Source: Candidatus Latescibacterota bacterium
GTDB taxonomy: Bacteria > Latescibacterota > UBA2968 > UBA8231
Length of the DNA: 64,000 nt
Direction: 5' to 3'
NCBI GenBank assembly: GCA_965197905.1
Contig: CBDAOB010000004.1
Span: 928,001-992,000, forward strand
Below, one piece after another: positions 3,157 through 62,686 of the stretch (the stretch's first letter is position 1; every line of letters starts with the position of its first letter). A program made the position numbers and the translations under genes. The notes under the pieces were generated by a model. It searched no databases. It worked only from the letters and a program-made list of their open reading frames with translations, and had not been told where the DNA came from.

Positions 3157-3270
3157 AAGGGTAGGGCGAATAGTTGGTATTATCGCCATTAGCGGCAAGG
3201 TAGGCGAGTTTGTGGCTTTTGTTGGGTCGTTTGGCGGGCGTGGCGGCCGGCGACCGGGGAAAAGCGCCGA
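3157..3270 (-). mobile_element. IS91/ISCR-like oriIS stub, subfamily B
   Basis: Reverse complement ends GCGATAATACCAACTATTCGCCCTACCCTT; matches 21723-21782 and 62584-62686. Confidence 0.7.
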
Positions 3271-3477
3271 AGCGGCGCGGATTCTTGCGGCACTGTAGCG
3301 CGATTCTCTCGCCTCGCCTTAACTGCATCCTGTACGCAGCTAGTCATCTCCTCTCCTTGCTGGCACTCCCTCTGTGGGTTCTATATCATTTGCCAGATGG
3401 GTACGCGACCTCCCTTACAGGGTCCCACGACGACCCTGTAGGTTCTTGGAGCGCCGCAATCAGAACGACGACATTCC

Positions 3478-3855
3478 ATGACCAAACTGTTCAACGGCAA
3501 ACGCGCCGCGTCGCTGATGGAAGCGCGCGGCATCGACATCCTGGTCGGTTCCGGGTACGTCAACTTCGGCTACCTCGCCGGCTACTTTACCCATTTCGGG
3601 CGCGACTACCCTGGCCCGCTGGTGAACGGCGCGCCGCTGGTGCGGTTTGCTGGTGTTCCCAAAGATCCGAATCTGAGCCCGTTCCTGATCACCTATCCGG
3701 GTGAAGAAGGGGATATCGTCGCTCAGGGCAGCTGGATCGACGAGCGGACCCGTCGTCACGATCTCGGACACTTCTCGGCCGAGATTCCGCTGCTGGTGAC
3801 TGGAAGCGGATGCGAGCTGTTGTCTGAGTTGCCGTATGGACTTGCGGTCGTATGA
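3478..3855 (+). pseudogene. M24 (Xaa-Pro peptidase-like) gene with large internal deletion
   Basis: Creatinase-N-like start (LMEARGIDILV..NFGYLAGY) fused to a typical C-terminus (EIPLLVTGSGCELLS); catalytic core missing. Confidence 0.7.
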
Positions 3856-3909
3856 GTGCGGTGAATGCGGCGGTGCGTCCTCGCCTCGAGCGCATGGTGG
3901 AGAGGAGAT

Positions 3910-5019
3910 ATGTTTTCGATACTGGATGAAGGAGCGCTGTCGCACAATCCGGCGACGGGTTCGTTTATTCCCACTGTTACGCCGTTGAATGACGGCACGT
4001 TCATCGCCGCTCAGCAGGTGGGCGCGGAATTGGGGTCGAGGGACCACCGCATCGAGATTCTGCGCTCCAGTAACGGCCGGGATTGGACCAGCGGGGGTAT
4101 GATGGACACGCGCGATGAAGCGCGCTCGTGGAGCTATCACAGTGCCCAGGTCTACCAGGTGGCGGACGGTCGATTCCTGCTCCGGGCCAGTCGGTTTTGG
4201 CGCCACGACAACCCGCGCCAGTTCGAGAAGCCCGAACCCGGCTTGCCCAGACCCGGCCCGGTCATTTTCTGGTCGGAGGACCGGGGCGAGTCCTGGTCAG
4301 AACCGCAATATGTGGAGGTGCCACTGCCCATCGATGCGTACACCCATCACGTGATGGGAAACCTCATCCAGTTGTCGGCGGACCGGTGGTTGTTTCCAAT
4401 CCAACTCAACAGCCCGAAAGGTCATTACAGCGGACCGAACCACCACGGAGCCGCCCTCTTGTTTTCGGCTGACGGCGGCAAGTCATTCGGCGAATTCACG
4501 ATACTCGCCCAGGACCCGGATGGCGTCGTCGAGTATCACGATCAGTTCGGTGTGCACCGGAAGGATGGCAGTCTTTACACCATGCTCTGGACGGTCCACA
4601 CAGACGCCAACGCCGACCTCAACAACCACTGGGTTATTTCGAACGACGGCGGTCGGACCTGGTCAAAACCGCAGCCGACGAACCTGCGCGGACAGGTATG
4701 TGCGCCGATCCGGTTGAGCGACGGTCGAATCGCCGCGGTCTACAACTACCGGCACAAGCCGCAAGGCATCCATCTGGCTCTCGGTCGCGATGAGGCCACC
4801 TACGACACGGACCATGAAATTGCTATTTTCCGTGCTGGAAAGGAAACCGCGGTGGGTAAGGCGAAGGACGACCACTTTCTATCCAAAAACGAGAAGATCG
4901 CCTTTGGCCGTCCCAACGGCGTCTGTCTGACGGACGGCACGATCCTGATCTGGTACTGGTGCACCATCAAAGGGGTCACGCATACCCGGTGGGCCCGGGT
5001 TGCAACAACACCCCCGTAA
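3910..5019 (+). CDS. Sialidase/BNR-repeat (Asp-box) protein
   Basis: Asp-boxes SSNGRDW, SEDRGESW, SADGGKSF, SNDGGRTW; RBS GAGGAG. Confidence 0.85.
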   Translation: MFSILDEGALSHNPATGSFIPTVTPLNDGTFIAAQQVGAELGSRDHRIEILRSSNGRDWTSGGMMDTRDEARSWSYHSAQVYQVADGRFLLRASRFWRHDNPRQFEKPEPGLPRPGPVIFWSEDRGESWSEPQYVEVPLPIDAYTHHVMGNLIQLSADRWLFPIQLNSPKGHYSGPNHHGAALLFSADGGKSFGEFTILAQDPDGVVEYHDQFGVHRKDGSLYTMLWTVHTDANADLNNHWVISNDGGRTWSKPQPTNLRGQVCAPIRLSDGRIAAVYNYRHKPQGIHLALGRDEATYDTDHEIAIFRAGKETAVGKAKDDHFLSKNEKIAFGRPNGVCLTDGTILIWYWCTIKGVTHTRWARVATTPP

Positions 5020-5105
5020 CCTTCAGGGGGCGAGCCGAGTCTTTGAAAGTGCTCCTCGGGGACAGCGACACTGTCTTCACGCCCTCGGTAGGACTGGCGT
5101 CGTTC

Positions 5106-5170: not shown

Positions 5171-5199
5171 GATGCTGTCCGCAAGGAAAGGAGTTTTCT

Positions 5200-6153
5200 A
5201 TGTCTGAATCAACTTACCGCAAAGCTCCGTTGGGCTTTACGAAAGAACAATGGGAGGAGTTTGATCGAGAAGGCTTACTGATCATCGAAGACGCTCTGAC
5301 ACAAGACGAGATTGATTATTACTTGAATGCAATTGATGAACTTATCGCCTCAGACTCGAACTACGAAGAAGGAGAATTCTATGGTCCGGACAATTTGGTG
5401 ACAAAAGATCCCGTCTTCGCGGAGTTAATCGATCACCCCCGCCATGTCGGTTATGCCTGCGACATCTACGGAGAATTGCTCAAGCTGCACGTCTCTCAGG
5501 CCTTTATTCGTCCACACTGCCCTTCACCCCACGTATGGCATCCAGATGGGGCCCGCGCTTTGCCTTACGGCGTGTTTTCGCCCAGACTACCGCTGCAAAT
5601 CAAGATTGGTTACTGGCTTACCGATCTGCCACGTCCAAAGATGGGGAATTTTGTGTGTATGCCGGGCAGTCATCGCCGTCAGTATTTTGAAGAGTTTGCA
5701 AAACATACAAGCATGCCGGGTGAGAAGATTCTCTGCTGCCCTAAAGGAACGATGACAATCATGCACTGCGGGCTCTGGCATCGCGTTGACCCCAATGAGA
5801 GCGATGTGGCGCGAAAGAATATCTTCATCGCTTATTGTCCGTCTTGGCTCTGCGAGGCGGACCGACTTGAGTGCGATCCGGATTGGTTGAAAACATTAAA
5901 CCGGGAACAGCGCATTATCATGCGCAGCTACACTCACGGCTATGCTCGCTCCAAGCCGCCCAAGGAGGATTTTCCCCTGTTTTTGGATCGAAATACTGGA
6001 CTGGCTTCGGATCCGAGATATTCCGACGATGTTCCGCCTAATTGGCGGAAGCGAAGAGTCGCGGTTGAACAGTGGGATATTGACCTCGGGCCGCCGGTAC
6101 TTAAACGGCGCCCAGATACGAGGGCAGAAGGTCCGTGCCGCCGTCGACGGTAA
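5200..6153 (+). CDS. PhyH family dioxygenase
   Basis: FDREGLL, WHPD, PGSH, LWHR; 3' end overlaps the convergent SDR gene. Confidence 0.9.
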   Translation: MSESTYRKAPLGFTKEQWEEFDREGLLIIEDALTQDEIDYYLNAIDELIASDSNYEEGEFYGPDNLVTKDPVFAELIDHPRHVGYACDIYGELLKLHVSQAFIRPHCPSPHVWHPDGARALPYGVFSPRLPLQIKIGYWLTDLPRPKMGNFVCMPGSHRRQYFEEFAKHTSMPGEKILCCPKGTMTIMHCGLWHRVDPNESDVARKNIFIAYCPSWLCEADRLECDPDWLKTLNREQRIIMRSYTHGYARSKPPKEDFPLFLDRNTGLASDPRYSDDVPPNWRKRRVAVEQWDIDLGPPVLKRRPDTRAEGPCRRRR

Positions 6154-7131: not shown

Positions 7132-8217
7132 TTGGAGTTTAGCATAGACACAATCCGCAAGCAGGACCCCTGGTATCGAAATCCAGCAGAGGCGATACGC
7201 GTATCCACCTGGACCGAGGTGCCCCGCGGGAAGCTGACCCATTACGAACACCCCGTTGTTGGCGATGATGCGTTGACGCGGGAACGTAGTCTGCCGGTCA
7301 GCGTGGTAGCCGGCATTGAGGACGGACCGGTTCTGCTGTTGATCGCCGGCGAGCATGGCAACGAATACGAATCCATTATCGCCCTGCAGGAAACTATCAG
7401 GGAGCTCAACCCCGCCGATCTCAAGGGCAAAGTGGTGGGGGTGAATTGTTGCTCGGTCGACAGCTATCTTCACCGAATTCGCGAGGGCAAAACCGATGGG
7501 CAGAATCTCGCGCGCGTCTATCCCGGCAGGATCGATGGCACGCTGACAGAGCGCGTTGCCTATACCTTGGAGAACGATTTTCTAGGCCAGCCAGCCCCGC
7601 ACAAGCCCGCGTTGATGGTGGCGTTGCACACGTATGGACCGCACCTCCTGGGAGCGTCCCTCGCAGGCTACAGTATCTATCCGGGTGAGCTCGACCTTAC
7701 GGATCGACAACGGCAAGCCGCTCTGCAGACGGGCATACCGCTGGTGTGGGGTCATGAATTTGATGCCAGCCATTCCACCACCGCGGAGATGGGTCACGAG
7801 GCCAGCGGGCGCACCGCCCTCTACGCCGGTTTTCTAGCCGGAGTGCCGGCGGTTTATTTCGAGACTGCCTGGGGCATGGGTGGTGAGATCGAATATGCCC
7901 GGGGTCTAAGGCGGTTGTTGGTTCACCTGGGAATGGTGGCAGGCGAAAACGAGCCCCTCGAACCGCGCGAGTTTGTCGAGTCTGCTGCCCACCAGGCCTG
8001 GTTGATGGGGTCCCACAATCAATGTCCCGTGGCCGGCTTGTGGCGACCGGCACGAAAAGCCTGGGACCGCGTCAAAGAGGGTGACCTGCTGGGCACGGTG
8101 TTCGATCTACACGGCCAACCCGCGCATGAGTTGCGCGCCAAACAGGACGGCGTGGTGATCTCTTATCCGAGAGTTCAGTACATTGAGGAGGGCCAACACT
8201 GCGGACTGGTGGTGTAA
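7132..8217 (+). CDS. Succinylglutamate desuccinylase/aspartoacylase (AstE/AspA, M14) family
   Basis: AGEHGNEY, NLARVYPG, ALHT, C-terminal biotinyl-like AKQDGVV; TTG start with AGGAG. Confidence 0.85.
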   Translation: MEFSIDTIRKQDPWYRNPAEAIRVSTWTEVPRGKLTHYEHPVVGDDALTRERSLPVSVVAGIEDGPVLLLIAGEHGNEYESIIALQETIRELNPADLKGKVVGVNCCSVDSYLHRIREGKTDGQNLARVYPGRIDGTLTERVAYTLENDFLGQPAPHKPALMVALHTYGPHLLGASLAGYSIYPGELDLTDRQRQAALQTGIPLVWGHEFDASHSTTAEMGHEASGRTALYAGFLAGVPAVYFETAWGMGGEIEYARGLRRLLVHLGMVAGENEPLEPREFVESAAHQAWLMGSHNQCPVAGLWRPARKAWDRVKEGDLLGTVFDLHGQPAHELRAKQDGVVISYPRVQYIEEGQHCGLVV

Positions 8218-8269
8218 TGCGATGCGCTCTGATCGTGGGCTCGCTCACAGCCGAAAGGATTTCGTACCG

Positions 8270-9112
8270 ATGACTTCCTGCGACTGCAAACCAACCCTCA
8301 CCGACACGCAGGTCATCGACTTCTGCCGCAACGGCTACCTGATGCTCGAGGGGGTGGTACCCGACGACGTCAACAGGCAAGCCCGCGAAGCGATGGATGC
8401 GCAGCGCGCGGAGAGCGGCTCGCTCCGCCAGATGGCCCACCTGCTCAAGGAGGACTGGTTCGTCGACGGGGTGATTCGCAACCCCGACGCCACCGGCGCG
8501 ATGCGCTCACTGCTCGGGGCCGACTACCGTGAACCGGATTGGCTGCTCTGGTTCAGGGGAGAGGGACCGGAGCCGGCCGGCCAATGGCACATCGACGGCG
8601 ACTCGAAATGGGGACCCCAGGTGCGGACCTTGAAGTGGTATTATATCCCGGCGGCGGCCACCTCCGAGTCCGGAGCGACGGTTTTCGTACGCGGATCCCA
8701 CCTGGTCTTCAACCAGGTCCGCTCGATGGCCCACTATGACGGGTTGCGGGGCACGTGGAAGGCGGTGGGTCCGGCCGGGTCGATCTACCTGACCCACTTT
8801 TCGATCTGGCATCGCCGCGCCACGTGCACGACGAGGGGCGTGCGCTACATGCTGACCACGTCGGTCAACCGAACCGCACCACCCCAGCGAGACTGGATCC
8901 GGGAAGAGCTGGACATGAACAGCGTCGAGTTCGGCTGCAACGAGCCGCGGTTCGGCGAGCAGCATCGCTATCACAACGACGGCGCCCATATGTATCTGTG
9001 GCTTTGCGGCAAGAGCGACCGCTTCGACCGGCCCAGCGGACCGGGTTGGCCGCATCCACCGATCGAGGGTCATCCCTTTGGCGAGGTGCCGGACTACGTA
9101 ACCGAGGACTAG
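8270..9112 (+). CDS. PhyH family dioxygenase, paralog of 129..992
   Basis: PTLTDTQVIDFCRNGYLMLEG, WHID, IWHR, MYLWLCG. Confidence 0.9.
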   Translation: MTSCDCKPTLTDTQVIDFCRNGYLMLEGVVPDDVNRQAREAMDAQRAESGSLRQMAHLLKEDWFVDGVIRNPDATGAMRSLLGADYREPDWLLWFRGEGPEPAGQWHIDGDSKWGPQVRTLKWYYIPAAATSESGATVFVRGSHLVFNQVRSMAHYDGLRGTWKAVGPAGSIYLTHFSIWHRRATCTTRGVRYMLTTSVNRTAPPQRDWIREELDMNSVEFGCNEPRFGEQHRYHNDGAHMYLWLCGKSDRFDRPSGPGWPHPPIEGHPFGEVPDYVTED

Positions 9113-11902: not shown

Positions 11903-12066
11903 ATTCCCTCCCTCGCTGCGGTAGAGGGAACAAAGGTACTATAATGGCCGAGCGTCAAGTATACTTTTTCTGACGGGGCAAGGTGGCTCTGTGGCGGACG
12001 CAGAGCAGATATCTGGGCGGGCGCTCGCTCGCCATCTTCAAGGCGCTCCACATCGACGAAGTGGAG

Positions 12067-12268
12067 TTCGCTACGCCTGATCCTTCCGCGGGCGCAGTGT
12101 GTCTACCCAATTCAAGCGCCGCCATAAAAGCGGCGTTCAAGGCGCCCTAAATAGATCCGCTAGCGCTTCGGGCCCGTTTCCCTCAGCCTGCCACCATATT
12201 CTTCGAGTGACCCCAAATCCCAACCCTCGCCGCGACTATCGATAACGGTGTTTATTTAGCCTATACTT
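12067..12268 (+). mobile_element. IS91/ISCR-like oriIS end, subfamily A
   Basis: Starts at transposase stop remnant TACGCCTGA; ends CTATCGATAACGGTGTTTATTTAGCCTATACTT. Confidence 0.8.
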
Positions 12269-12358
12269 CCGACCATGAAGGGACGGCGGTGCAGCTACGT
12301 TTCGCATTGCGCGACGCGAGTCTCTACTCGTTCTGATTCAAGGTACCGGAGGAATGAG
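12269..12358 (+). repeat. 90-bp direct repeat of 13816-13905 (3' end of a paralogous GH-like gene)
   Basis: 84/90 identical by manual alignment; 4 of 6 differences synonymous, one TGG>TGA. Confidence 0.9.
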
Positions 12359-13904
12359 GACAACCGAGACAGAAAGGGTGAACGGATCGATGCGGGAGGG
12401 GCCTTTCAACGACACAGTGAACCCGGTGAAGACTTCTATGATACTCGTAATCAGTATGAAGGTCTGTCTATTGATGATCGCGACCACGGCGGCGACGGCG
12501 CAGTCGTTCACCGTGCCGGTCGGGGAACGGCAACTGTTCCTGGACGATGTCCCCATCGCCGAGATGGACGGTCTGAGGCGCTCGATGCACCAGGCGGTCA
12601 AGAAAGGCGCGGTGATCCGGCCCGACTACTTGGGGCAAGAACGCCATTTCTCGGTTCGCAACGCGCCGAACTGGGACCGCGAGCGCGAGGTGTTCAGATT
12701 TCTCGTGACTGAGGCCGCGGGGCCGAATACCTCGACTGTTTGGGAAAGCGACGACGGCCTGCACTGGGTGCGCGTGGGCACGTCGGACATGGTGACGTAC
12801 ACCGTCGTCTACGATCCCACCGATCCGGATCCGTCTCGCCGGTACAAGTCGATGAATCGCAGGCGAATCGCCGTCTCGCCCGACATGCTCACCTGGGAGG
12901 TGGTCGGCAATCCGAGAATCCCCGGCAGCGACGAGCACAATCTGTCCTTCGATGAGAAATCCCGAGTCTTCTTTTTTTCGGTCAAGAGAGGCGGGCCGTA
13001 TGGCCGCTACGGCCGCTCTCACGCCCTCTACACCAGCGAGGATCTGGCGCGGTGGACCAAGGTGGGGATAGCGGGAGAAGACTCGCTCTTTCACGCCGAC
13101 GACGAGGACCAGGAACACAACCGGGACGCTATCACGGCACTGATGGAAGAGCTGGTTGCCGATCCGAGACTCGCGGAGACCGACTTCTACGCAGAGGGCA
13201 ACTACAACGTCGACATCTACAACACGCCCGTTTTCCGCTACGAGAGCCATTACCTGGCGCTGCCAGCCATTCACCCCTCCATAACCATGGACCTGTCCGA
13301 TCCCAGTGACAATATCGCCTTAAAGATTCCTCAGCTGTGGTGGAGCCGCGACCTCCGGAACTGGACCAGGCCGGAGGATCGCTCGGACTTCATCACCCTG
13401 TCCCGTACGGAGAGCGGCGCCTATGACCTGGCCGTCGCGTTTCCACCATCGAGCCCGGTCATCAGGGGAGACGAGCTGTGGTTCTACTACGCTGGGGATG
13501 ACGGATTGGGCTGGCCTCCCAAGACCGGTCTCGACCTCAGGAGGACGGATTGGAAGTATTATCGGCCGGACAGGTCAGCGATCTGCCTGGCAGTGCTGCG
13601 CCGGGACGGATTCATGTCACTGGACGCGGGGGCGGGAGGGTCGGTGGTCACGAGGTCGTTCACCGTCCCCGGCCCCGAGCTGTTCGTCAACGTCGATGCA
13701 ACGGATGGCCAGCTGGTCGTCGAAGTGGTAGACGAGAGTGCAGTAGTGGCACGATCTGCGCCACTCCTGGGGGACCAGCCCAACGCCGCGGTAGCGTGGC
13801 AGGATGGGAACATAGCCGACCATGAAGGTACGGCGGTGCAACTGCGTTTTGCATTGCGCGACGCGAGTCTCTACTCGTTCTGGTTCGAGGTACCGGAGGA
13901 ATGA
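12354..13904 (+). CDS. GH32/43/130-like five-bladed beta-propeller protein (start may be 12456)
   Basis: QLFLDD, ESDDGLHW, DPDPSRRYK, DELWFYY, LRRDGFMSL, LRFALRDASLYSF; signal-peptide-like N-terminus. Confidence 0.8.
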   Translation: MRTTETERVNGSMREGPFNDTVNPVKTSMILVISMKVCLLMIATTAATAQSFTVPVGERQLFLDDVPIAEMDGLRRSMHQAVKKGAVIRPDYLGQERHFSVRNAPNWDREREVFRFLVTEAAGPNTSTVWESDDGLHWVRVGTSDMVTYTVVYDPTDPDPSRRYKSMNRRRIAVSPDMLTWEVVGNPRIPGSDEHNLSFDEKSRVFFFSVKRGGPYGRYGRSHALYTSEDLARWTKVGIAGEDSLFHADDEDQEHNRDAITALMEELVADPRLAETDFYAEGNYNVDIYNTPVFRYESHYLALPAIHPSITMDLSDPSDNIALKIPQLWWSRDLRNWTRPEDRSDFITLSRTESGAYDLAVAFPPSSPVIRGDELWFYYAGDDGLGWPPKTGLDLRRTDWKYYRPDRSAICLAVLRRDGFMSLDAGAGGSVVTRSFTVPGPELFVNVDATDGQLVVEVVDESAVVARSAPLLGDQPNAAVAWQDGNIADHEGTAVQLRFALRDASLYSFWFEVPEE

Positions 13905-13911
13905 GAGCCGC

Positions 13912-15053: not shown

Positions 15054-15944
15054 ATGATGCCACCGGACCTCAAGTCCGAATTCGAGTCCAATGGATACCT
15101 AAAGGTTCCCCAGGCGCTGGAACCTGAGGATCTCTCGGTCCTGATCGCATGTGCGGACCGGCTGATCGACGAATTTTCGGGGAAGCTGAAATCGGATGGA
15201 CAGTTGAAGTCGGACTACAGATCCGAGTCTTTCGACAGCCGAATCGTCTCCATCCTCCAGGAAAGTGGAGAACCGCAACCCCACTGGACACGCTATTTCT
15301 TCGGTCCGGAACTCCATTCGATCGTCACCAGTCCACGCCTCTTGAATGTGCTTTCGCCTCTGGTGGGTCCAGAGATCCTGTTCAACGGAGGCTGTCAGCT
15401 GCGTTCCAAACCGCCCACGCGGTTTCATGACCAGCTGAGCAATCTGCCCTGGCATCAGGACACCCAGTACTATGGGGAGATTACGCAGCATCTGGACATC
15501 GTTACGGTTTGGATTCCCCTTGTGGACGTGGACGAATCGAACGGTTGCCTTTGGATCATCCCCGGCAGCCATCGGTGGGGATTACTACATGGCGCCAGAG
15601 ACCACGAGCAGAATATGAGGACACGAGAGAACGTGGAAAAACGCGGCGAACCAATCTCGATTCCGATGAAAACCCGGGACATCCTCCTGTTTCACAATCT
15701 CACATTTCACTCCTCCAGAGAAAACCGTACCCAGAGGGCCCGATGGAATGTAGACATTCGGTTCATGGCAAACCCAGCCTGCCGAATCCTATCCGATGAG
15801 GAGAGGGAGGCGCAGAAATTCCTGGCGGAAAAAATGAGGAAGTCAAAAAAGCCGTCTCTTGTTGTGCAGGGAAAAGGTGCGGGTGTAAGCTGGGAGGACT
15901 GGCGGAAGAGTTACCCTGGTCGGCTTCAGACTCTGGGTGACTGA
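15054..15944 (+). CDS. PhyH family dioxygenase
   Basis: FESNGYL, PWHQD, NGCLWIIPGSH, TFHSS..N. Confidence 0.9.
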   Translation: MMPPDLKSEFESNGYLKVPQALEPEDLSVLIACADRLIDEFSGKLKSDGQLKSDYRSESFDSRIVSILQESGEPQPHWTRYFFGPELHSIVTSPRLLNVLSPLVGPEILFNGGCQLRSKPPTRFHDQLSNLPWHQDTQYYGEITQHLDIVTVWIPLVDVDESNGCLWIIPGSHRWGLLHGARDHEQNMRTRENVEKRGEPISIPMKTRDILLFHNLTFHSSRENRTQRARWNVDIRFMANPACRILSDEEREAQKFLAEKMRKSKKPSLVVQGKGAGVSWEDWRKSYPGRLQTLGD

Positions 15945-16665: not shown

Positions 16666-16721
16666 GGATCAGGTTGCGATGCGCCATGTGCGGATTTGAA
16701 GCAGTCGGCTCGTGCCCGTTG

Positions 16722-17609
16722 TCATCCCCGCTGATTCCAGTCGGCGCCGAGTTCGTCGAACTGGGACTGAAGCGATTCGACAACCTCTTCGGGAAGCGGA
16801 CCGGCGGATGCCGTTTCGATGTTCGCTTTGGCGTTTTCCAACTTGGTCGTTCCCACGATGGCGGTGTCGATTGCGTCGTTGGAGAGGGTGAAGCGCAGGG
16901 CCAGTTCGATGCCGTCTTCCGGCGCGCCGTCAGGAAGGGTGATCTGCTTGGAGCGGTCCCAATAGGCGTCGGCGTAGGTGTACGGGGACGCCGATTTCCG
17001 GATGGCGCCGTTGGCGATCGGTCGTTTGGCGATGACGCCCATTCCCGCTGCGATGGCTGATGGAAGAACCTCGTATCGCGCTTTTTGGTCGACGAGGTTA
17101 TAGGAAGTCTGAAGGGTCGAGAAGACGCCCATACGGATCGCCTCGAGGGCATCCTCACCGTCACCGCTGTAACCAACGTAACGGACCTTACCCTCTTCCT
17201 TCGCTGTGAGAACGGCTTCTACCGCCTCGCCTGCCTTCAGGACGTCGACGGAGCAAGTATGCAGTTGCATCAGGTCGATCCGGTCCGTTTTCATCCGGAC
17301 GAGCGAGCGGTCGATGCTTTCTCGAATGAGACCCGCCGTCCACGGTTCGCCGGTAGCGTCTCCGGTGACGTGGCCGCACTTCGAGGCGAGGACGAATTCA
17401 TCCCGTCGACCACTGACGAATTTCCCGATCAGTTCTTCCGACTCACCGTAGCATGCCGCCGTGTCGAGTAAAGTCGCACCGGCGTCCAGGAAGCCGTTCA
17501 AGAGCTCATCGACTTGCCCCTCCGTTACATCTTCGATACCGATCCGCGCGCCGCCGAATGCGAGTCGCGTAACTTCCAGGTCCGTGTTTCCGAGCGTGCG
17601 AGATTCCAT
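16722..17609 (-). CDS. Aldo/keto reductase
   Basis: MESRTLG, LDTAACYGESE, SKCG, IDLMQLH, KVRYVGYS. Confidence 0.9.
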   Translation of the reverse strand: MESRTLGNTDLEVTRLAFGGARIGIEDVTEGQVDELLNGFLDAGATLLDTAACYGESEELIGKFVSGRRDEFVLASKCGHVTGDATGEPWTAGLIRESIDRSLVRMKTDRIDLMQLHTCSVDVLKAGEAVEAVLTAKEEGKVRYVGYSGDGEDALEAIRMGVFSTLQTSYNLVDQKARYEVLPSAIAAGMGVIAKRPIANGAIRKSASPYTYADAYWDRSKQITLPDGAPEDGIELALRFTLSNDAIDTAIVGTTKLENAKANIETASAGPLPEEVVESLQSQFDELGADWNQRG

Positions 17610-17748
17610 GTCGTGGCCTATTCGAAGAGGTTGTTGAACAAGATTGCCGTACCTGAGAGTCCGTGCAAGTCGACGGCGTGCGTCCCGGCGGGACGGCGGG
17701 GGATCTTGCGCAAGGACGTAATCGGCCCTATTCCTGTGGAATGCTGAC

Positions 17749-19263: not shown

Positions 19264-20158
19264 GAGCAGAGCCGCCGACTCGTCCCCGGGTCAGCGGGTG
19301 TCGCTGCTTCGCCCACTCGTACCGTTCGGCGTACGACTGGCGCGCGCCGACGGCGTCGAAATGTTCCCGCTCGGCCTCGGTCCTGGCCTTCAGTTCCGCG
19401 AGCGGGTCGATCATGGCCCTGATGCGGGGGATGTCGCTGCTCGCAAAGGGCTCGACGGGATCGTAGATGCTACCCCTGTGGTTGTACCGCATGAAGGACG
19501 CGATCTCTTCGTCCGTCTCCGGCCATGCGGCGAAACGCAGCTTGAGATAGCGCCGGCCGGGCTGCATGCCGTACACGCCGTGGTAGATCTTCTGGGTGAA
19601 GAAGACGATATCACCCGGGTCGGACTCAACGACAACACCTGGGACGTCCGTGGGGCTGAGCCCGTAGACCTTCTGAGTGGTGTCCTCTTCCTGCTCGTTG
19701 AGCGGAAGGAGGTCGTCATAAAGGGAGGGTCTGTGTGACCCCGGGATGACACGAAGCGCCCCGGTGTCGCCCCTGAGCTTCTCTAGGTAGAGGTGGAAGC
19801 TGTATGTAGTGGCGTGAGGCTCGCCGGGTCGGTCCGAGTGCCATCGATGCTCGCCCGTGCCGATTACACCTGAATAGGACAGGCTACCGCCAGACCCGTT
19901 CCAGACAAAACGCGGTCCCAGCAGCTCCTCGACCGTGCCGAATATCCGGTCGTCAACGAGCATCCGCGTAGCCACCGGGCTCTTCTCTATGATGTCCTCA
20001 ATGCCCTGGTTCTCTCCTGGCGGTCCACCTCCCCTCTGCTCCGCGAACAGCTTGTCCACTTCCTGGCTGAGCGACTCCATCTCCTCGGCCGAAAACAGCT
20101 GCCTCAAGCGGATGAACCCAAAGTCGTAGAAGTGGGACTTCTGCTGCGGTGTGATCAT
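19256..20158 (-). CDS. PhyH family dioxygenase
   Basis: FYDFGFI, WHSD, GALRVIPGSH, PGDIVFF, IYHG. Confidence 0.9.
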   Translation of the reverse strand: MITPQQKSHFYDFGFIRLRQLFSAEEMESLSQEVDKLFAEQRGGGPPGENQGIEDIIEKSPVATRMLVDDRIFGTVEELLGPRFVWNGSGGSLSYSGVIGTGEHRWHSDRPGEPHATTYSFHLYLEKLRGDTGALRVIPGSHRPSLYDDLLPLNEQEEDTTQKVYGLSPTDVPGVVVESDPGDIVFFTQKIYHGVYGMQPGRRYLKLRFAAWPETDEEIASFMRYNHRGSIYDPVEPFASSDIPRIRAMIDPLAELKARTEAEREHFDAVGARQSYAERYEWAKQRHPLTRGRVGGSAPI

Positions 20159-20186
20159 CTCTGCGTTCCTTCGGGCTGCGGTCGAA

Positions 20187-21638: not shown

Positions 21639-21722
21639 TGCCGTACTTCCCTTGACGGTCAGAGTGGTTCGGGATACTAGGCAGATTAAGGGCGGTCTCG
21701 GTTATGCGGTCAAGGAGCGCCC

Positions 21723-21782
21723 GCCACAAACTCGCCTACCTTGCCGCTATTGACGATAACGCGTTTTATTCGCCCTATCCTT
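21723..21782 (+). mobile_element. oriIS stub, subfamily B
   Basis: GCCACAAACTCGCCTACCTTGCCGCTA identical to the reverse complement at about 3190-3216; ends TATTCGCCCTATCCTT. Confidence 0.7.
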
Positions 21783-29396: not shown

Positions 29397-29518
29397 TCCC
29401 CATCCTCAATCAGCATCATACCGATCACCTGCGCCCGGGGCGAAGTATTGTTGCCCTGTAGATAGAGGATATCCTGTTGTTTCTGACTGTTTTGCTGCAC
29501 TATATCGGAGATCCCAAG

Positions 29519-29647
29519 ATTATAAGAAGAATAAACACCGTTATCGATAGTCGCGGCGAGGGTCCGTTCCGTGGGGATTTGGGGTCACTCGAAGAATATG
29601 GTGGCAGGCTGAGGGAAACGGACCCGAAGCGCTAGCGGATCTATTTA
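29519..29647 (-). mobile_element. oriIS end, subfamily A (closest to the 12067 copy)
   Basis: Reverse complement nearly identical to 12148-12265; terminus degenerate (CTTATA). Confidence 0.8.
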
Positions 29648-29778
29648 AAGCGGGCGCCGGCCATGGCCACCGGCGGCATGTCTTCCAACCCGAGTTTGAT
29701 AAAGACGGAGTTGCCGCCCCAAAGAAAGGTTGCCACGACGGCAAGCGAGGACGCTTGAGATCGACGCGCTGCCGGCAC
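29647..29778 (-). pseudogene. 5' scrap of an EamA/DMT transporter, cut by the oriIS element
   Basis: LAVVATFLWGGNSVFIKLGLEDMPPVAMAGARF ends exactly at the repeat. Confidence 0.75.
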
Positions 29779-29788
29779 GGTCGGGCGT

Positions 29789-30479: not shown

Positions 30480-30522
30480 AAGTATAGGATAAATAAACAC
30501 CGTTATCGATGTGCGGCGAGGG
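30480..30522 (-). mobile_element. Minimal oriIS stub, subfamily A
   Basis: Reverse complement CCCTCGCCGCACATCGATAACGGTGTTTATTTATCCTATACTT, about 46 bp upstream of the PPIase start. Confidence 0.8.
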
Positions 30523-30656: not shown

Positions 30657-30885
30657 GTGGAGATTCTGTCAGCGGGACTGCCTCCAAGGCAGAACCGGTG
30701 TCACTCTGTGTCCAGCCGTTTGTTGATGCGCTAACTATCAGAACGATGAAGGCTGCCGGAATTCAAAATCCGTCTCCCGAAATAAGGTTGCTCAGCACCG
30801 CTGGCTCCTCCGACTCTTCTTGTTTAATGTGAATATCTGTAACGAGGCGTTCGAAAGGTAGCTCATTCTCCGGGAGATCAAAAAC

Positions 30886-31935
30886 ATGGCCAAACTCACC
30901 GACAAGGAACGAAAGCAGAAAGCCCTGGCCCGCAAGCGCGCCGCCTATCCCGACCAGGTTATCGGCTTCTGGAAGGACGCGATGCGCGACCGCATCGATG
31001 CGACTCGAAAGCTGGCCTCCTTCAAAGTCCGTCGAGGAGATTGTCACAGCCATTCGACCTACAGCGATGGAATCGGAACCGTGCCAGAGATCGCGAGCTG
31101 GGTCGACAGGGCGGGACTGGACTTCTTCTTCTTGACGGACCACCACACCGTTCGGCAGAAGACGGAATGCGTCAAATACAGGAACATGTGGTGGGGTCAG
31201 GAGCCGGGGACACAGTATCACCACCTGGGTATCCTCGGTCTGGACAGGAAGTACACGGTGAAACAAGATCTGGTCAAAGACTACCAGGCGGTCATAGCGC
31301 GCGGTGGTTTTCCTTTCATCCCCCACCCCAACGGCTGGTTTCCGCGCCGGCGCTACACCAAGCAGCAGGTTGACTCGTTGAATCTGCTTGGAGACGACTT
31401 TACGATGGAACTGATCAACGGCGCCAACAACATCTTCGACTGCTTTGATATCACCGACAGGTGGTCGGTCGAGCTTTGGGACCGATTTCTCTGTCAAGGC
31501 AAAGTGGTCCGAGGCATGGGAAACACGGATGCGCACTTGCCGCAAGCCATCGGAGATGTATGGAACGGCGTCTCCGTGGATCGCTTGACCAAAAAGAACG
31601 TGCTGGACGCCTTCTGGGCAGGCCACTTCTTCGCTTCCGACGCGCCGTTCATCAATTTGAGGTGTGGCCGAAGTCAAATGGGCGACACGGTCAGGAAGCG
31701 GAAGGGCAGCAGCGTCGAGGTGCGCTTCGAGTGCGTCGACAGCATGGGACTGCAGCAGGTACGAATCGTCGCCGATGGCAAGGTGGTCAAGGAGATCTGG
31801 CCCAAGGACGAGCAGGTTGTCAAGGGAACACACAGATTGAGATTCAGGAGCGGGACATCCTACATCCGCGTCGAGTGCTTCGCCAGGGATAACCGGAAAG
31901 CCTTCGCGAATCCGATCTACATCCGGGAGGCCTAG
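30886..31935 (+). CDS. PHP-domain metallohydrolase (CehA/McbA-like)
   Basis: GDCHSHSTYSDG, TDHH, PHP, GNTDAH, YIRVE...ANPIY. Confidence 0.85.
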   Translation: MAKLTDKERKQKALARKRAAYPDQVIGFWKDAMRDRIDATRKLASFKVRRGDCHSHSTYSDGIGTVPEIASWVDRAGLDFFFLTDHHTVRQKTECVKYRNMWWGQEPGTQYHHLGILGLDRKYTVKQDLVKDYQAVIARGGFPFIPHPNGWFPRRRYTKQQVDSLNLLGDDFTMELINGANNIFDCFDITDRWSVELWDRFLCQGKVVRGMGNTDAHLPQAIGDVWNGVSVDRLTKKNVLDAFWAGHFFASDAPFINLRCGRSQMGDTVRKRKGSSVEVRFECVDSMGLQQVRIVADGKVVKEIWPKDEQVVKGTHRLRFRSGTSYIRVECFARDNRKAFANPIYIREA

Positions 31936-32024
31936 CCTCCGGGGCGAAACCATGCCAGTTGAGAATTCCAGACGAGGAAACCTGTAACGGCCGACATTCC
32001 GGGGGGCAGGGTCAGACGTCCACC

Positions 32025-32434
32025 TATCGCCGCTCCTGGGCCACCCTACTGGCACGGGTTTTTGCATCGATGTGACGCGCTGTCCGGACTGTGGTGGTCG
32101 TATGAAGATCATCGCCGCCCTCACCGACCCACGTTCGATCCGCCGCTATCTGCACGGTATGGGCTTGCCGGCGCGGGCGCCGCCCATCGCATCCGCGCGA
32201 CCCCAACCGCAATTCGACTACGCCTGATTGGCTGAGGGCGAGGTATGTCTACCCGTTTTGAGCGGTTGCTCAAAAGCGGCGTTCAGGTGCCCGAAATAGA
32301 TCCGCACTAGCGATTCGCGGCCGTTTCCCATGGCCAGCCGACCATACGTTGCAAATGTCCCGAAAAACGCCGCACTAGACCGGCACGGACCCTCGGCGCA
32401 ACTGTCGATAACGGTGTTTATTCGTCCTGTACTT
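32025..32434 (+). mobile_element. IS91-family remnant: transposase C-terminus (32025-32227) + ~200-bp oriIS end
   Basis: WATLLARVF/IDVTRCPDCGGRMKIIAALTDPRSIRRYLHGMGLPARAPPIA...QFDYA*; ends CGGTGTTTATTCGTCCTGTACTT. Confidence 0.88.
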
Positions 32435-35103: not shown

Positions 35104-35495
35104 CTCACGCCGTCGTGGTCGGACGGCACCACCCACCTGATCCTTTCTCCCCTCGAACTCATCGAGAAGCTCGCCACTTTGGTACCGCCGCCGCGGCTGA
35201 ATCTGATTCGCTATCACGGGGTGTTGGCACCCAACGCCGCCGATCGCATCGGCGCGACTAGATCCCCAACCGCAATTCGACTACGCCTGATCCTCTTCGG
35301 GTGAAGTGTGTCTATCCTCTTGAGCGGCTGCTTAAAAGCGGCGTTCAAGTGCCCAAAATAGATCCGCAATAGCGCTTCGCGGCCGTTTCCCATGGCCCGC
35401 CACCCCTACGTTGCAAATGTCCCGAAAAAACCCCACCAGAGCGGCACGGACCCTCGGCGCAACTATCGATAGCGGTGTTTATTCTTCCTATACTT
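35104..35495 (+). mobile_element. Internally deleted IS91-family element: transposase fragment + oriIS end
   Basis: WSDGTTHLILSPLELIEKLATLVPPPRLNLIRYHGVLAPNA (Y2 transposase motif) jumps to the QFDYA* tail; ends CGGTGTTTATTCTTCCTATACTT. Confidence 0.9.
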
Positions 35496-37280: not shown

Positions 37281-37328
37281 TCGCAGGGGGCCGCCGCAAT
37301 CCGGACAGCGCGTCACATCGATGCGAGA
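37281..37328 (-). mobile_element. IS91 transposase micro-fragment
   Basis: Reverse complement GCATCGATGTGACGCGCTGTCCGGA identical to 32065-32089; RIDVTRCPDCGGPLR. Confidence 0.75.
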
Positions 37329-37606
37329 AACAGTTGTCCTGGGGTTGTCCCACGGAACCCGTTGCCAGCTGCAAGCGGATCGCCGACGACTCCCGCTACG
37401 ACTCCCCCTTCGTTCAGCCTAAGCCCAGCATAGCCCGATGAGTCACGGCCGCCTTCCTCTACTTCTAGAGGCTCTCACAGCGAGGGGTCCGCCGAGACGC
37501 ATGACTCGTGAGGGAGTCTTCAACTAGTCTCCAACTAGACCTCAACTAGACGGCGTCACGCGGGATCTGCCCCGTGTTCGAACAGCGCGCGCGCCTCGGA
37601 AGCGAC

Positions 37607-40903: not shown

Positions 40904-40990
40904 AAGTATAGGACAAGCAAAGACCGTTATCGATAGTTGCGCCGAGGGTCCATGCCGCTCTGGTGGGGGTTTTTTCGGGACATTTGCAAG
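40904..40990 (-). mobile_element. oriIS stub, subfamily A
   Basis: Reverse complement ends CTATCGATAACGGTCTTTGCTTGTCCTATACTT. Confidence 0.82.
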
Positions 40991-41528: not shown

Positions 41529-41571
41529 TTCGTCCGTCCTTTTTCGGTTCGTGGGTTGTCGAGCGCTGGTA

Positions 41572-41821: not shown

Positions 41822-42062
41822 AAGTATAGGACAAATAAACACCGTTATCGATAGTTGCGCCGAGGGTCCGTGCCGCTCTGGTGGGGGTTTCGGGACATTT
41901 GCAAGGTATGGTCGGCTGGCCATGGGAAACGGCCGCGAAGCGCTATCGCGGATCTATTTCGGCCACCTGAACGCAGCTTTTGAGCAACCGCTCAAAACGG
42001 GTAGACATACCTCGCCCGCAGAGGATCAGGCGTAGTCGAATTGCGGTGGGATCTGGTCGCGC
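41822..42062 (-). mobile_element. oriIS end, subfamily A, with transposase stop remnant
   Basis: Reverse complement closely matches 32200-32434 and 35255-35495. Confidence 0.88.
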
Positions 42063-42197
42063 GGGAGCGAACGCCGGCGTCCACTCCGCCCCTCGTCACC
42101 AGTAAAATCAAAAAGTTACAAGACTTGATGCCCGATCTTGTATTAGTACTCTCTGCTGCGTTGACCATTCACGACATCCAGCCAGTTAGCTGACATC

Positions 42198-48572: not shown

Positions 48573-48619
48573 CAAATGCCCCGAAAAACGCCCGCACCAG
48601 AGCGACACGGACCCTCGGC
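48573..48619 (+). repeat. Internal fragment of subfamily A element lacking the terminus
   Basis: CAAATGCCCCGAAAAACGCCCGCACCAGAGCGACACGGACCCTCGGC matches 32352-32397 and 35414-35458. Confidence 0.75.
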
Positions 48620-57264: not shown

Positions 57265-57783
57265 ATGGCTGAAACAGGAAACGCACGACTACCGGGCGCA
57301 CCATTTGGCATTGATATATCGCGCTACCGGCGGCACCGCGTACCGCTACAGCAAGGATGGCCAGTGGACGGGACCGGAGATCGGCCGGATCGAATTCAAC
57401 GGCTCGACGGCCAACAACCTGGTGTGCGATCAATGCGTCGGCCCCGTCATGCGCGCCTTACAGGTGCGGCATCGAAGCGGACAACGAAGGTCGTTTCACC
57501 CTGCCGACTCAAAAACGTCGACGCACGAATTGCGCCTTAATTACCGATGCGACAACGGCGGCTGGATAAAGGTGGAGTTGCGCAACAAGGTGCCATCCCG
57601 CAAGTATCCCGACGGCGAAGGAACTCCCGGATTGACGTTCGAGGATTGCGACTGGATCTACGGCGACGAGGGTGACAGGCTGGTGACCTGGAATGGCAAG
57701 AGCGATATTTCAGCGGTCGGAGAGACGGTGGTGATCCGCATCCGAATGTTTCGCGCCAAGGGTTTTTGCCTACAAGATTTAGA
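57265..57783 (+). pseudogene. Multiply deleted GH-like beta-propeller gene
   Basis: Only SKDGQW..PEIG...ANNL, GIEADNEGRFT and ELRLNY...GGWIKVEL...VTWNG...IRIRMFRAK remain; resembles 24917..26422. Confidence 0.7.
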
Positions 57784-57813
57784 CTTTCGCCACCTACGCG
57801 AGGAGAGCCTGCC

Positions 57814-58615
57814 ATGAATCCGACCCCACAGGAATTGAAACGGGGCAAGCTGACAAAAAAGAAACTCGCGCAGGCGGTGGCAAGGATCGACGAAGAGGGC
57901 TACGTCGTGCTGGAGAAGGCGGTGCCAACGACGCTCTTGAAGGAGATTCGCGATGCCATGGATTCCGTACACAGGCAACATTTCAAGGCGCATCCCGGCG
58001 CCACGAAGAACGCAAATTCGTTGGGCAAGAGTCGGGGGATCTTCAACGTCCGGCCCCCGAAAGAGATGCCGTTCATGGAACCGCTGGTGGTGGCGAATCC
58101 GTTCGTCGTGCAGATCTTGGGGCAGGTGCTTGGACCTGATATGTTCTGCGCTTCGTACAATACCAACAACTCGTGGCCCGGTTCGAGGGTGCAGCACGTG
58201 CATCGCGACCAGGATCCTCTGTTCGAGAATCTACCCCATCCGCTGCCTCCGTCGGCGGTGACGGCCAGTATTCCCCTGGTCCCCTTCACCGAGCAGACAG
58301 GCGCCACCGAGATCTGGCCGGGAACGCACCTCTACACGGGACCGTATCCTGGGGCCGTACCGAGCTTTGATCCGGTAGCGGGGGACAGAACCTCTTGCAG
58401 AATGCTGGCTTCGTGGGGGAGCATCGTACTGCGGGATGGGCGGATGTGGCATCGCGGCATGCCCAACAAGACCAAGAAAGTGCGCACCATGCTGTCGCTG
58501 GTGTACCGCCGCCCTTTCCACACCCGCGACCAATCTATGGGTATTCGCCACGAGGTCTGGAATCACATCCCCGAAAGGCCGGCAGCTCTTTCGGTTCAGC
58601 CCGGTAAACGACTAG
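57814..58615 (+). CDS. PhyH family dioxygenase (1-nt frameshift near 58575)
   Basis: DEEGYVVL, QHVHRD, GATEIWPGTH, MWHRG.PN. Confidence 0.85.
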
Positions 58616-58709
58616 CAGGCTCGTGTAGGACCCCATTCCACACTGACAGCATGAACATTTGTAGGTCTTGACGCGTCGAACGGGGTTCAGAAGTAGGTCA
58701 GGAAAGAAG

Positions 58710-60482: not shown

Positions 60483-61602
60483 CTGGATTCGTGCATACAT
60501 GGGGGATGAGGGATTGGATGCTGTCATCCCAGTAAATCTGCAGACGGCCGCCTATGCCAGCGGTGCCCATAATCCATTATCGATGCATTGGCAGGATCAG
60601 GAATTACCCAGCTTTACCGTGTTCCCCCGGGTCGGGGATCCGTTTGCCGTAATGGGTAATGCTAAATGGTTAGAGGGCTCACGCCGTCCGTGGTGGATCA
60701 ATGAAGTCTATCAAGGAGGTTGGCGAACCTCTGAAGCGGTGGAAAGGCTGGCCGTGATTCTTAGAGAACGCGGGTTGGACCAGGCTACTCTGGGACTTGA
60801 TTTGGAATCAGCGCCGGTGTCGCTGGTGAACGAGCTGCACCGGCATTTACCTGCCATTCAAGTGCGCGACGCCAGTCTGTTGTTTCATCAATTGCGCGCG
60901 GTAAAGACAGAAAAGGAAGTTGGGTTTCACCAGAAGGCCCTGGCAGCCCTGGAAACTGCCGTTGAGGAAATGCGGAGCAATTTGAAGGCCGGTCGACTGG
61001 TCAGTGACTTGATGCGAAGGTTCCGCGAATTGGTGACCGTCGAAGGGGGTGCCGAGTTTGACGGGGCGGATCTCAATCCGGTCCTGCCGGATGGGAGCAA
61101 AGGAGAAGCTATTCATGCTCATACCTTGTCTACCGAGTGGTTCGATCCGCCGACCGTTTCCGAGCAAACCATTGAACCCGGTCGCGTCCTGACCATGGAC
61201 CTTATTTCTTCGTATCAGGGATACCACGCTGATGTGAGGGCAAACCTCTGTCTCGGCGAGCCAGAGAATGGCATGGCCCAATGTTGTGATCTGGATGCGG
61301 CGGTGTACCACATCCTGTGTTCTAACGTTAGACCCGGGGTATCTACCAGTGAGTGCCACGCCCTTTGTCGGGAGGAGATAGAGAAGGCAGGTTACACGAG
61401 GTATTGGTCCATTCACGGGATTGGTCTAACTGTTCATGAAGAACCGATGCTTGGCAACCGCCAGACACCGCGTCCGGAGATGCAATTTGAAGTTGGTAAC
61501 GTGTTGTCCATTGAATCTCAGTTTCATGAAAGTATGTATGTCCTCCGTGAGGACGGCCTACAACGACTAGGCTCATTACCCCCTGGCGTTATGAGTGCCT
61601 GA
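60472..61602 (+). CDS. M24 Xaa-Pro peptidase family
   Basis: RAVKTEKE, MDL...GYHADV, HGIGLTVHEEP, SIE. Confidence 0.88.
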   Translation: MNLDWIRAYMGDEGLDAVIPVNLQTAAYASGAHNPLSMHWQDQELPSFTVFPRVGDPFAVMGNAKWLEGSRRPWWINEVYQGGWRTSEAVERLAVILRERGLDQATLGLDLESAPVSLVNELHRHLPAIQVRDASLLFHQLRAVKTEKEVGFHQKALAALETAVEEMRSNLKAGRLVSDLMRRFRELVTVEGGAEFDGADLNPVLPDGSKGEAIHAHTLSTEWFDPPTVSEQTIEPGRVLTMDLISSYQGYHADVRANLCLGEPENGMAQCCDLDAAVYHILCSNVRPGVSTSECHALCREEIEKAGYTRYWSIHGIGLTVHEEPMLGNRQTPRPEMQFEVGNVLSIESQFHESMYVLREDGLQRLGSLPPGVMSA

Positions 61603-61615
61603 GATGGAGGTGCTG

Positions 61616-62467
61616 ATGTACCTGACCGAACAACAGAAAAGGTTCTTCGAAACTTTCGGCTATTTGAGTTTCCCCGGTCTGTTTGCTTCCGAAGCCGAGG
61701 CCATCACTCAAGCTTTCGAGGAGGTGTGGGCGGAGTACGGCGGGGGCCACTATCAACGTCCCCACGACCATCAACAGCGCTCATCGCTGCTGCCTTTCAT
61801 CGACCAGCACCCCTACCTGTGCGCCCTGCTCGACGACGAGCGCATCGAAGGCGTCGCCGCCGATCTGTTGGGCGAAGACTTCAACTATATGTCCAGCGAC
61901 GGGAATTTCTACGTCGGCAATACTAACTGGCATTCCGACGGCTACGACCGCTCCCCAGGCTACCGCTCCATCAAGATAGCGTTCTACCTCGACCCCGTGG
62001 GGCGCCACAGTGGCTGCCTCCGCGTCATTCCGGGCAGTCACAATATGGGCGACGCTTTCGCCGATGCGGTCCACGAGGTGATGCCCACCGGGAGAGTGGA
62101 CTGCACTGAGGAAATCTGGGACGTCGGCGGCAACGACGTACCGGCTCAGGCGCTGGAGACCGAGCCCGGCGACATGGTGGTTTTCAACCACCGGCTGAAG
62201 CACGCCTCCTACGGCGGCAGCACGAGCCGGCGCATGTTCACGATCAATCTGCAACAGCGTTTCAGCGGAGAAGACGAGGAAATGCTGCGCGCCAGCGTCG
62301 GCGCCCTGGCTCGCCATTGGGCCGACAGCGCTTACGGTCCCAAGATGCTGGAGACTGCCGGCCCGGGCCGCATGCGCCACCTGGAACAGCGCCTGGCCCA
62401 CGACGACCACCTGCCCGCGCTGGTCGCCGAGGCGCGGCGGGACACGAGCGAACCCAGCCGTCACTAA
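61616..62467 (+). CDS. PhyH family dioxygenase
   Basis: FFETFGYL, WHSD, GCLRVIPGSH, PGDMVVF, LKHA. Confidence 0.9.
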   Translation: MYLTEQQKRFFETFGYLSFPGLFASEAEAITQAFEEVWAEYGGGHYQRPHDHQQRSSLLPFIDQHPYLCALLDDERIEGVAADLLGEDFNYMSSDGNFYVGNTNWHSDGYDRSPGYRSIKIAFYLDPVGRHSGCLRVIPGSHNMGDAFADAVHEVMPTGRVDCTEEIWDVGGNDVPAQALETEPGDMVVFNHRLKHASYGGSTSRRMFTINLQQRFSGEDEEMLRASVGALARHWADSAYGPKMLETAGPGRMRHLEQRLAHDDHLPALVAEARRDTSEPSRH

Positions 62468-62583
62468 GCTGTTCGATCACAGCCAGATACCCAACCGCAG
62501 CGCTTGATCGGTCCGCGGGTCCGCGGGTGAAGCATACTTGTGCCGCGTGACCGCAGCGTCTAGAGCCCCTTCAGGAACCGAAA

Positions 62584-62686
62584 TCGACGCCCTTTCCCCG
62601 TCGCGCACCGCCAAACGACCCAACCTGTTCACAAAACCGCTGGCTTGTTGCTACTACCGATAATACCGTTTATTCGCCCTATCCTT
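62584..62686 (+). mobile_element. oriIS stub, subfamily B
   Basis: Shares CCGCCAAACGACCCAAC and CGATAATACC..TATTCGCCCTA(T/C)CCTT with 3157-3270. Confidence 0.7.

Follow-up and report, generated by a model that had tools for sequence, protein, structure and literature searches.

Among described mobile elements, insertion sequences of the IS91 family and their ISCR relatives are the closest to the repeats reported here. For IS91 and IS1294, the ori end (oriIS) is sufficient in cis while the transposase can act in trans, no target duplication is made and DNA beyond the left end is co-mobilized, and IS801 also acts in trans and co-mobilizes flanking DNA (PMC13181058, PMC3189936). Right-end fragments made up 26% of the trapped IS801 insertions, and one-ended transposition is the source of such fragments with lengths of 229, 360 and 679 nt; most genomic IS801 fragments were ascribed to reorganization, and recombination is discussed as their main effect (PMC3189936). 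Intact and partial copies of ISCR2 flank tet(X) genes (PMC7722449), and the oriIS region of ISCR1 contains two outward promoters, which increase the expression of DNA lying downstream 13- to 15-fold (PMC6218425). Here, we analyzed a 64,000-nt stretch of the chromosome of an uncultured, marine Candidatus Latescibacterota bacterium (assembly GCA_965197905.1, contig CBDAOB010000004.1, positions 928,001 to 992,000; hereafter the window), which carries an array of short non-coding repeats that we call stubs. Judged by their sequence, the stubs are ISCR-type oriIS ends, i.e., 3′ tails, of an IS91-family element, and they are likely its fossils within a scrambled island of catabolic genes.

The window belongs to a genome of 6.69 Mb in 5 contigs that is 91% complete (G000). 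It was compared with the other two genomes of the same genus, G001 and the sister genome G002, the latter serving for synteny, and with G019 and G020, related genomes of the same GTDB family from which the full-length copies of the element came. A fragment matching the Pfam family Y2_Tnp (IS91-family transposase) ends just upstream of the stub at 35495, and full-length transposase open reading frames (ORFs) of 452-476 aa with the same 3′ end are present in related Latescibacterota genomes of this family. Comparison of the G020 and G019 copies yields an element of about 1.8 kb composed of a left end, the transposase and a tail. The left end is GC-rich and begins GGATG; the tail of 227 nt ends ...CCTATACTT and is followed by C, A or G in three insertions, and over the window and the relatives the tail measures 207-227 nt downstream of the transposase stop. 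Two full-length insertions, a small sample, could be read at both ends (GGATG...CCTATACTT, with unrelated flanks), and neither of these G020 and G019 elements has terminal inverted repeats or a target duplication. The full-length transposases of the related genomes are 38-39% identical over 91% of their length to the plasmid-borne transposases of ISCR1 and ISCR2/ISVsa3. Relatives in the protein databases carry PF14319 (N-terminal zinc-binding) and PF04986 (HUH/Y2), and in the window only C-terminal fragments of the PF04986 transposase occur. The ISCR1 end, read from a plasmid, is GGTGGTTTATACTTCCTATACCC with the terminal part GGTTTATACTTCCTATAC, and that of ISCR2 is GGGCGTTTATTCTTCCTATACGTG; the copy at 35495 is identical to the ISCR2 end at 17/17 nt (GTTTATTCTTCCTATAC) and close to the ISCR1 end. 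Because of this match and the similarity of the transposases, we assign the stubs to ISCR-type oriIS ends, which bears out an earlier sequence-only reading of the window; the ISCR1 terminus given there also agrees with the ISCR1-bearing plasmid.

A repeat search in both orientations recovered the family throughout the window (Table 1), with piece boundaries set by means of long reference copies from the sister genome. All 11 elements listed in the sequence-only reading were found again, its division into subfamilies A and B proved correct, and one 44-nt scrap was added at 37288-37331. In the oriented alignment, the sharp end ...CCTAT(A/C)CTT is kept in 10 of the 12 pieces, with one degenerate, and the opposite ends are ragged. 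This arrangement had been described before, whereas the lengths, given as about 43-240 bp, were measured at 43-464 nt. The motif CCTRYMCTT occurs 12 times in the window against 2.32 expected, a number reached by 0 of 100 shuffles; nine occurrences are stub ends and the remaining three (32599, 40722 and 52067) are not stubs. The end-bearing stubs are of mixed orientation (5 plus, 5 minus). Four stubs, among them those at 12268 and 41822, still include the final transposase codons with the stop. Transposase fragments directly adjoin the stubs at 32434 and 35495, confirming the two attachments reported earlier, and correspond to about aa 411-475 (stub 31971-32434) and, for the Y2_Tnp fragment, aa 342-385 (stub 35114-35495) of a 476-aa reference.

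A profile of the terminal 65 nt, built from ten window copies and applied at E <= 0.001, found 29 ori ends in G000, 13 of which fall within 140 kb of one contig (C4:885-1025 kb), i.e., into 2% of the genome, where 0.6 would be expected. The stubs are thus not spread uniformly but concentrated in a region of broken synteny, as the idea of stub-rich islands had predicted. The same end family is present in both other genomes of the genus, clustered again in G002; elsewhere in the bacterial family, 3 of 22 genomes have it. Truncation of the element is polar. Of 111 Y2_Tnp matches in 41 related genomes, classified by hand, 10 cover the full domain, 72 only its C-terminal part, 16 only its N-terminal part and 13 are internal, and several of the N-terminal pieces adjoin a C-terminal piece, i.e., they are frameshifted full copies. 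In G000 itself, not one left-end or N-terminal piece stands against the 29 ori ends. Such an asymmetry argues against random deletion, and a process anchored at the ori end would give it; the retention of the ori side, which rolling-circle initiation at oriIS predicts and which parallels the right-end fragments of IS801, is therefore the chief argument for tracing the ragged ends to a rolling-circle process.

Neither an intact transposase nor a terIS had been visible in the window, and this extends to the genome: Pfam and tblastn searches found no intact transposase in the window or in G000. The Y2_Tnp profile has only three matches in G000, all weak, and tblastn with the 476-aa relative returned ten pieces, all from its C-terminal 46% and none before aa 257. 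No cognate intact transposase was found in G000, G001 or G002. The most complete cognate copy of the genus is a frameshifted piece of G002 covering aa 116-473, which shows that similar transposase genes are followed by either of two tail variants, A or B. When 5.8 billion public proteins were searched with this piece for full-length forms, the best match among the 8000 candidates scored was 68% identical. The left (ter) end gave only chance-level matches in the window and G000, with the left 200 nt of the G020 element as query; with an identity of only 70-75%, this element may fail to detect a diverged left end. A contig from a seawater metagenome joins the two transposase scraps of the window in the expected order (35247, 33 nt, 31971), hence longer copies exist in the environment.

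Taken together, the stubs are likely to be fossils of the right (oriIS) end of an IS91-family element from the ISCR-like branch, embedded in a scrambled catabolic island. The complete element would be the unit of about 1.8 kb seen in the relatives, with a GC-rich left end, a zinc-finger and HUH/Y2 transposase of about 476 aa and a tail of about 210-230 nt. Its transposase would nick the right end, and a copy would be spun out from there towards the left end; an early stop, or later loss on the transposase side, would leave a constant ori end and a ragged opposite end, and some pieces have neighboring DNA attached at their ragged side. Within this genus the family has decayed to C-terminal transposase scraps and tails, leaving the stubs immobile unless a foreign transposase recognizes them. 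The island holds accessory genes of small-molecule catabolism that are extensively reshuffled, mostly away from the stub edges. The stubs probably add to this reshuffling as dispersed homologous repeats, and they may supply an outward promoter.

Several observations weigh against this reading. The ragged ends start with AACG, GTAT, TCYG, GAYG, CGTG, CTTG and CCCTCG, with no ter-like or target-like consensus, and the full-length element starts with GGAT. The miniature IS801 fragments described by Bardaji et al. (2011; PMC3189936) resemble the stubs in that the right end is kept, the left ends vary and accessory genes are often near, but the mobile ones among them start with a target-like tetranucleotide, which the stubs do at one or two of about 8 ragged ends examined (CTTG at 40988, perhaps CTCG at 30522, and 0 of 5 others). 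By this standard, most ragged ends would be products of reorganization and not of abortive transposition. One metagenomic contig from a relative points to a stub of greater length next to the cyclophilin gene (joint 30463 to 41819; weak, with 90-95% likeness), which favors later truncation. G000 is only 91% complete, and the public protein search scored only 8000 candidates. Finally, four stubs of G002 (see below) are so similar to each other (96-99%) that the family, or recombination among its copies, should have been active recently in the genus, although no transposase was found.

A CTTG, CTCG or CTTCG motif about 40 nt inside the end is common to the window stubs, the G020 elements, ISCR1 and ISCR2, and several genome copies of about 40-48 nt seem to start there. 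The motif may mark a true internal stop site, or conservation may just end at this point. When 13 ends, those of ISCR1 and ISCR2 among them, were folded to a consensus over their terminal 65 nt, no base pairs and no conserved hairpin were predicted.

The exact ori junction was examined in the 29 ends of G000, in which CCTAT(A/C) is followed by CTT (17), CTC (6), TTC (2) or CGT (1), with 3 unclear. Two informative sites disagree on whether CTT is element or target DNA. In the flank of 12268, the stub has CTT|CCGACC and the intact paralogue ATAG|CCGACC; since this uninterrupted site lacks CTT, the CTT came with the stub. At 32434, the stub-free version in G002 reads AGGAGG|TTGGATG against CCTGTAC|TTTGATG, and as the stub-free site shares TT, these bases could belong to the target. 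Such comparisons place the junction only within 2-3 nt, between CCTATAC| and CCTATACTT|, so that the breakpoint CCTATA|CTT assumed in the sequence-only reading is not established.

Table 1. Stubs, scraps and PhyH-family genes in the window (positions refer to the 64,000-nt stretch)
Feature	Position	Strand	Remarks
B-type ori-end stub, 121 nt	3158..3278	-	CCTACCCTT on minus strand at 3157-3165; faces truncated SDR gene 2514-3080
A-type ori-end stub, 205 nt	12064..12268	+	starts at last transposase codons and stop; ends CCTATACTT
B-type stub, 58 nt	21725..21782	+	downstream of sulfatase 20187-21638(-)
A-type stub, 141 nt	29518..29658	-	degenerate terminus CTTATAATCTT
A-type minimal stub, 43 nt	30480..30522	-	47 nt upstream of cyclophilin gene 29789-30433(-)
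Ragged-side DNA of next stub	30727..31970	+	one intact gene, 30886-31935, CehA/McbA-family metallohydrolase
A-type stub, 464 nt	31971..32434	+	frameshifted transposase C-terminus and 207-nt tail ending CCTGTACTT
A-type stub with Y2_Tnp (PF04986) fragment	35114..35495	+	internal 232-nt deletion; tail ends CCTATACTT
Isolated internal scrap of transposase gene, 44 nt, no end	37288..37331	-	absent from the list of the sequence-only reading
A-type stub, 85 nt	40904..40988	-	ragged end begins exactly at internal CTTG
A-type stub, 267 nt	41822..42088	-	last transposase codons included
Internal A-type tail piece, 47 nt, no ori end	48573..48619	+	
B-type stub, 171 nt	62516..62686	+	ends CCTATCCTT
PhyH paralogues	129-992, 5200-6153, 8183-9112, 15054-15944, 19256-20158, 43724-44611, 57766-58671, 61595-62467		

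The DNA around the stubs is a mosaic. Randomly chosen backbone regions of G000 are 88-91% identical to G002, in collinear blocks of 3.5-10 kb, and 74-76% identical to G001, whereas the window shares with G002 blocks of 0.3-3 kb that are 94-99% identical, scattered and reordered. In a 160-kb stretch of G002, collinear arms of 90-97% identity flank a scrambled core that holds the stubs; these arms weaken the idea that window modules are generally closer to G002 than the backbone is. Among 42 synteny-block boundaries tallied by hand, 6 lie at a stub, i.e., within 50 nt of its edge, against 1.4 expected (about 4-fold, Poisson p = 0.004), for example block 40989-41541, which begins at the ragged edge of stub 40904-40988. 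The link between stubs and breakpoints is real but concerns a minority, as 36 of the 42 lie elsewhere. The claim that stubs alternate with single-gene cargo fits 2-3 of 10 inter-stub intervals (cyclophilin 29789-30433, PNPOx 41010-41528, hydrolase 30886-31935) and fails for the others, which contain about 4-11 ORFs. By eye, the block junctions share no motif. Genes in these islands move or are exchanged at a high rate, and stubs join some of the events; the link between stubs and mosaic is only partial, and the data do not show that stubs drive the exchange.

Further features of the island were noted alongside. Eight PhyH-family (Fe/2-oxoglutarate oxygenase) paralogues occur in the 64 kb, among SDR, aldo-keto reductase, sulfatase, DUF3604 and AtuA genes. 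Four modules, 1287-2222 (CN-hydrolase), 5187-6090 (PhyH), 16707-17637 (aldo-keto reductase) and 41011-41574 (PNPOx), are 93-95% identical to G001, where no IS91 stub lies beside them; this similarity suggests a recent cross-species exchange of single genes, by whatever route. A 1,414-bp insertion, 57293-58706, with the PhyH gene 57766-58671, separates two sequences that directly adjoin each other in G002 (3830772|3830773), and no stub or obvious repeat was seen at its ends. Broken genes include a probably disrupted DUF3604 gene, split into the minus-strand ORFs 37542-38231 (profile positions 366-541) and 38259-39395 (2-338), an SDR gene without C-terminus (2514-3080), a 27-codon remnant at 32439 and a 5′ gene fragment (30509-30726). 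An AAA_12 helicase tail, 40501-40920, a truncated host-type gene, abuts an ori end. A 90-nt direct repeat (12269-12358 and 13816-13905, 93% identical) brackets gene 12354-13904, which has no family match; its upstream copy is cut off at the ori end of stub 12064-12268, so that this stub borders directly on the 90 nt that remain from the end of a truncated tandem copy. Over-replication of a circle was rejected as explanation: G002, too, has the gene followed by the start of another copy, and because of this shared order we regard the repeat as a remnant of tandem genes. An Rfam scan of the window at the gathering threshold gave no matches and a tRNA scan no genes.

An alternative that we consider possible but doubtful is that the stubs are passive dispersed repeats, the mosaic having arisen by homologous and illegitimate recombination and the ragged ends being deletion scars. 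The 36 breakpoints away from stubs fit this scenario, as do module boundaries that vary between genome pairs and the fact that the most similar stub pairs of the window are inverted pairs (93-95% identical), which is consistent with exchange between them; Bardaji et al. concluded likewise for most IS801 fragments (PMC3189936). However, random deletion should leave left-end remnants as often as right-end ones, and neither the ratio of 0 to 29 in G000 nor that of 16 N-terminal-only to 72 C-terminal-only matches in the wider family agrees with this. The enrichment of breakpoints at stub edges also speaks against purely passive repeats.

It is unlikely, in our view, that the stubs persist because they serve the gene beside the ori end as a mobile promoter reading outward. 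A site of the form TCGATA-N17-TATACT (or TATAAT) reads out across the end in 5 stubs; these account for 5 of the 9 promoter-like sites in 29400-42200, where shuffled sequence has a mean of 4.9. The ori-side gene reads away from the stub in 9 of 10 cases in the window and in 21 of 29 in G000 (binomial p = 0.02; the gene calls, from ORF length and GC3, are crude), and the outward promoters of the ISCR1 oriIS region set a precedent (PMC6218425). This bias is not repeated in G002 (8 of 16). Agreement with a consensus does not count as evidence that the site works, and ISCR1 and ISCR2 conserve the same bases, presumably to serve the transposase. Moreover, the stub at 32434 took the place of the ribosome-binding site that belonged to the next ORF downstream, now the 27-codon remnant.

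The sequence-only reading went further and took each transposase-less stub for a working portable origin that is fired in trans and builds an integron-like library of catabolic genes. The best candidate for such mobility is unit 30727-32434 (1.7 kb), in which one CehA/McbA-family hydrolase gene is joined to a transposase scrap and the tail. A further copy lies at G002:6044048-6045763 between flanks that both differ from those in the window; the homology stops exactly at the ori end, and the left end of the G002 unit lies 4 nt past the ori end of another stub. In bins of 100 nt, however, the gene part is 96-100% (about 98%) and the stub part 82-90% (about 85%) identical, unlike a single, recently moved piece, so that joint mobilization is not shown. 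A second copy of the hydrolase gene (G000:C4:520614-521754, 99.6% identical to window 30799-31939) has other boundaries and is preceded by a stub fragment lacking the ori end (region G000:C4:520252-521754), an order permuted relative to the window unit. G002 shares the block of sulfatase and B stub, 20173-21767 (96%), and its copy has lost the final 15 nt of the stub end; the left boundary of the block is the same in both genomes and the left flanks differ. At G002:C1:5652000-5667000, four stubs, direct and head-to-tail, are the ones with 96-99% identity to each other. They lie in an 11.5-kb segment that replaces 658 nt of G000 (C5:789961-790628), with cargo blocks 99.3% identical to G000 loci that adjoin stubs, far above the 88-91% of the backbone. 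The same blocks provide a counterexample, as one of them is inverted between its two flanking stubs in G000 relative to G002, and stub orientation is mixed in the window as well. Trans action and co-mobilization by IS91, IS801 and IS1294 (PMC13181058, PMC3189936) lend the proposal plausibility, but no cognate transposase was found in the three genomes of the genus, the closest public protein among those scored is the 68% match, most breakpoints lie away from stub edges, the modules shared with G001 have no stub beside them in that genome, and the 1.4-kb insertion 57293-58706 is without one. On balance, we regard working portable origins as quite unlikely, and the idea of an integron-like library built by them as unsupported.

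Still less probable is our own suggestion that the ori ends remain in use because a diverged transposase of co-resident bacteria or plasmids recognizes the terminal ~40 nt and fires the stubs or inserts DNA there. This would fit the modules that are 93-99% identical between genomes with backbones of 75-91% identity, the G002 unit 4 nt past another ori end and the head-to-tail array of G002. If true, the stub-rich islands of marine Latescibacterota would be a shared cross-species exchange for single catabolic genes. That misassembly produced the array, in a chimeric contig joined through its repeats, is hardly credible: the assembly is of the metagenome type with many repeats, but no positive evidence was found, near-identical short-read contigs from two samples of different studies span the junctions between unique sequence and repeat at 29658, 30480-30522, 30727, 32434, 35495 and 41822 with 0-4 differences, and G002 has an island of the same kind.

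Returning to the reading of the stubs as fossil ends of an ISCR-like element, their likeness to ISCR1 and ISCR2/ISVsa3 comprises, besides the transposase of the relatives, a tail reaching about 200 nt past the stop, the shared terminal GTTTAT..CCTATAC, an outward promoter-like site in the ori region, and intact and partial copies interspersed with foreign genes. The differences concern the host, a Latescibacterota-type chromosome instead of a proteobacterial plasmid, the neighbors, which are catabolic enzymes and not resistance genes, the loss of the transposase from the stub genome, the mixed orientation, and the last 2-3 nt, which are CTT in the stubs and, after CCTATAC, CC in ISCR1 and GT in ISCR2. 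Compared with IS91, the target tetranucleotide CTTG/GTTC next to oriIS is only loosely matched, and no ter end was found in G000 with the diverged G020 query. Integrons and Helitrons offer an analogy only, in that gene-sized pieces accumulate and, in Helitrons, capture is also by rolling circle with one defined end. Pfam and NCBIfam scans of the window, made on a greedy ORF set with some ORFs picked by hand, revealed no recombinase or integrase and no Rep/helicase protein, module boundaries had no repeated palindromic, attC-like site, and the terminal 65 nt lack the conserved 3′ hairpin, which leaves the earlier label of a Helitron-like or integron-like platform without support.

A literature search returned no paper that mentions 'Latescibacter' and 'IS91' together. 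The stubs are a natural example of a known gene-moving element in a marine bacterium, and not a new mechanism or kind of system. Their presence widens the range of ISCR-type rolling-circle elements, mostly known so far from resistance plasmids of clinical origin, to a chromosome from an uncultured environmental phylum, and with 29 ends in one genome and 72 versus 16 remnants in 41 genomes they provide a large natural sample of polar decay products retaining only the ori end, on which termination and decay of such elements can be studied.

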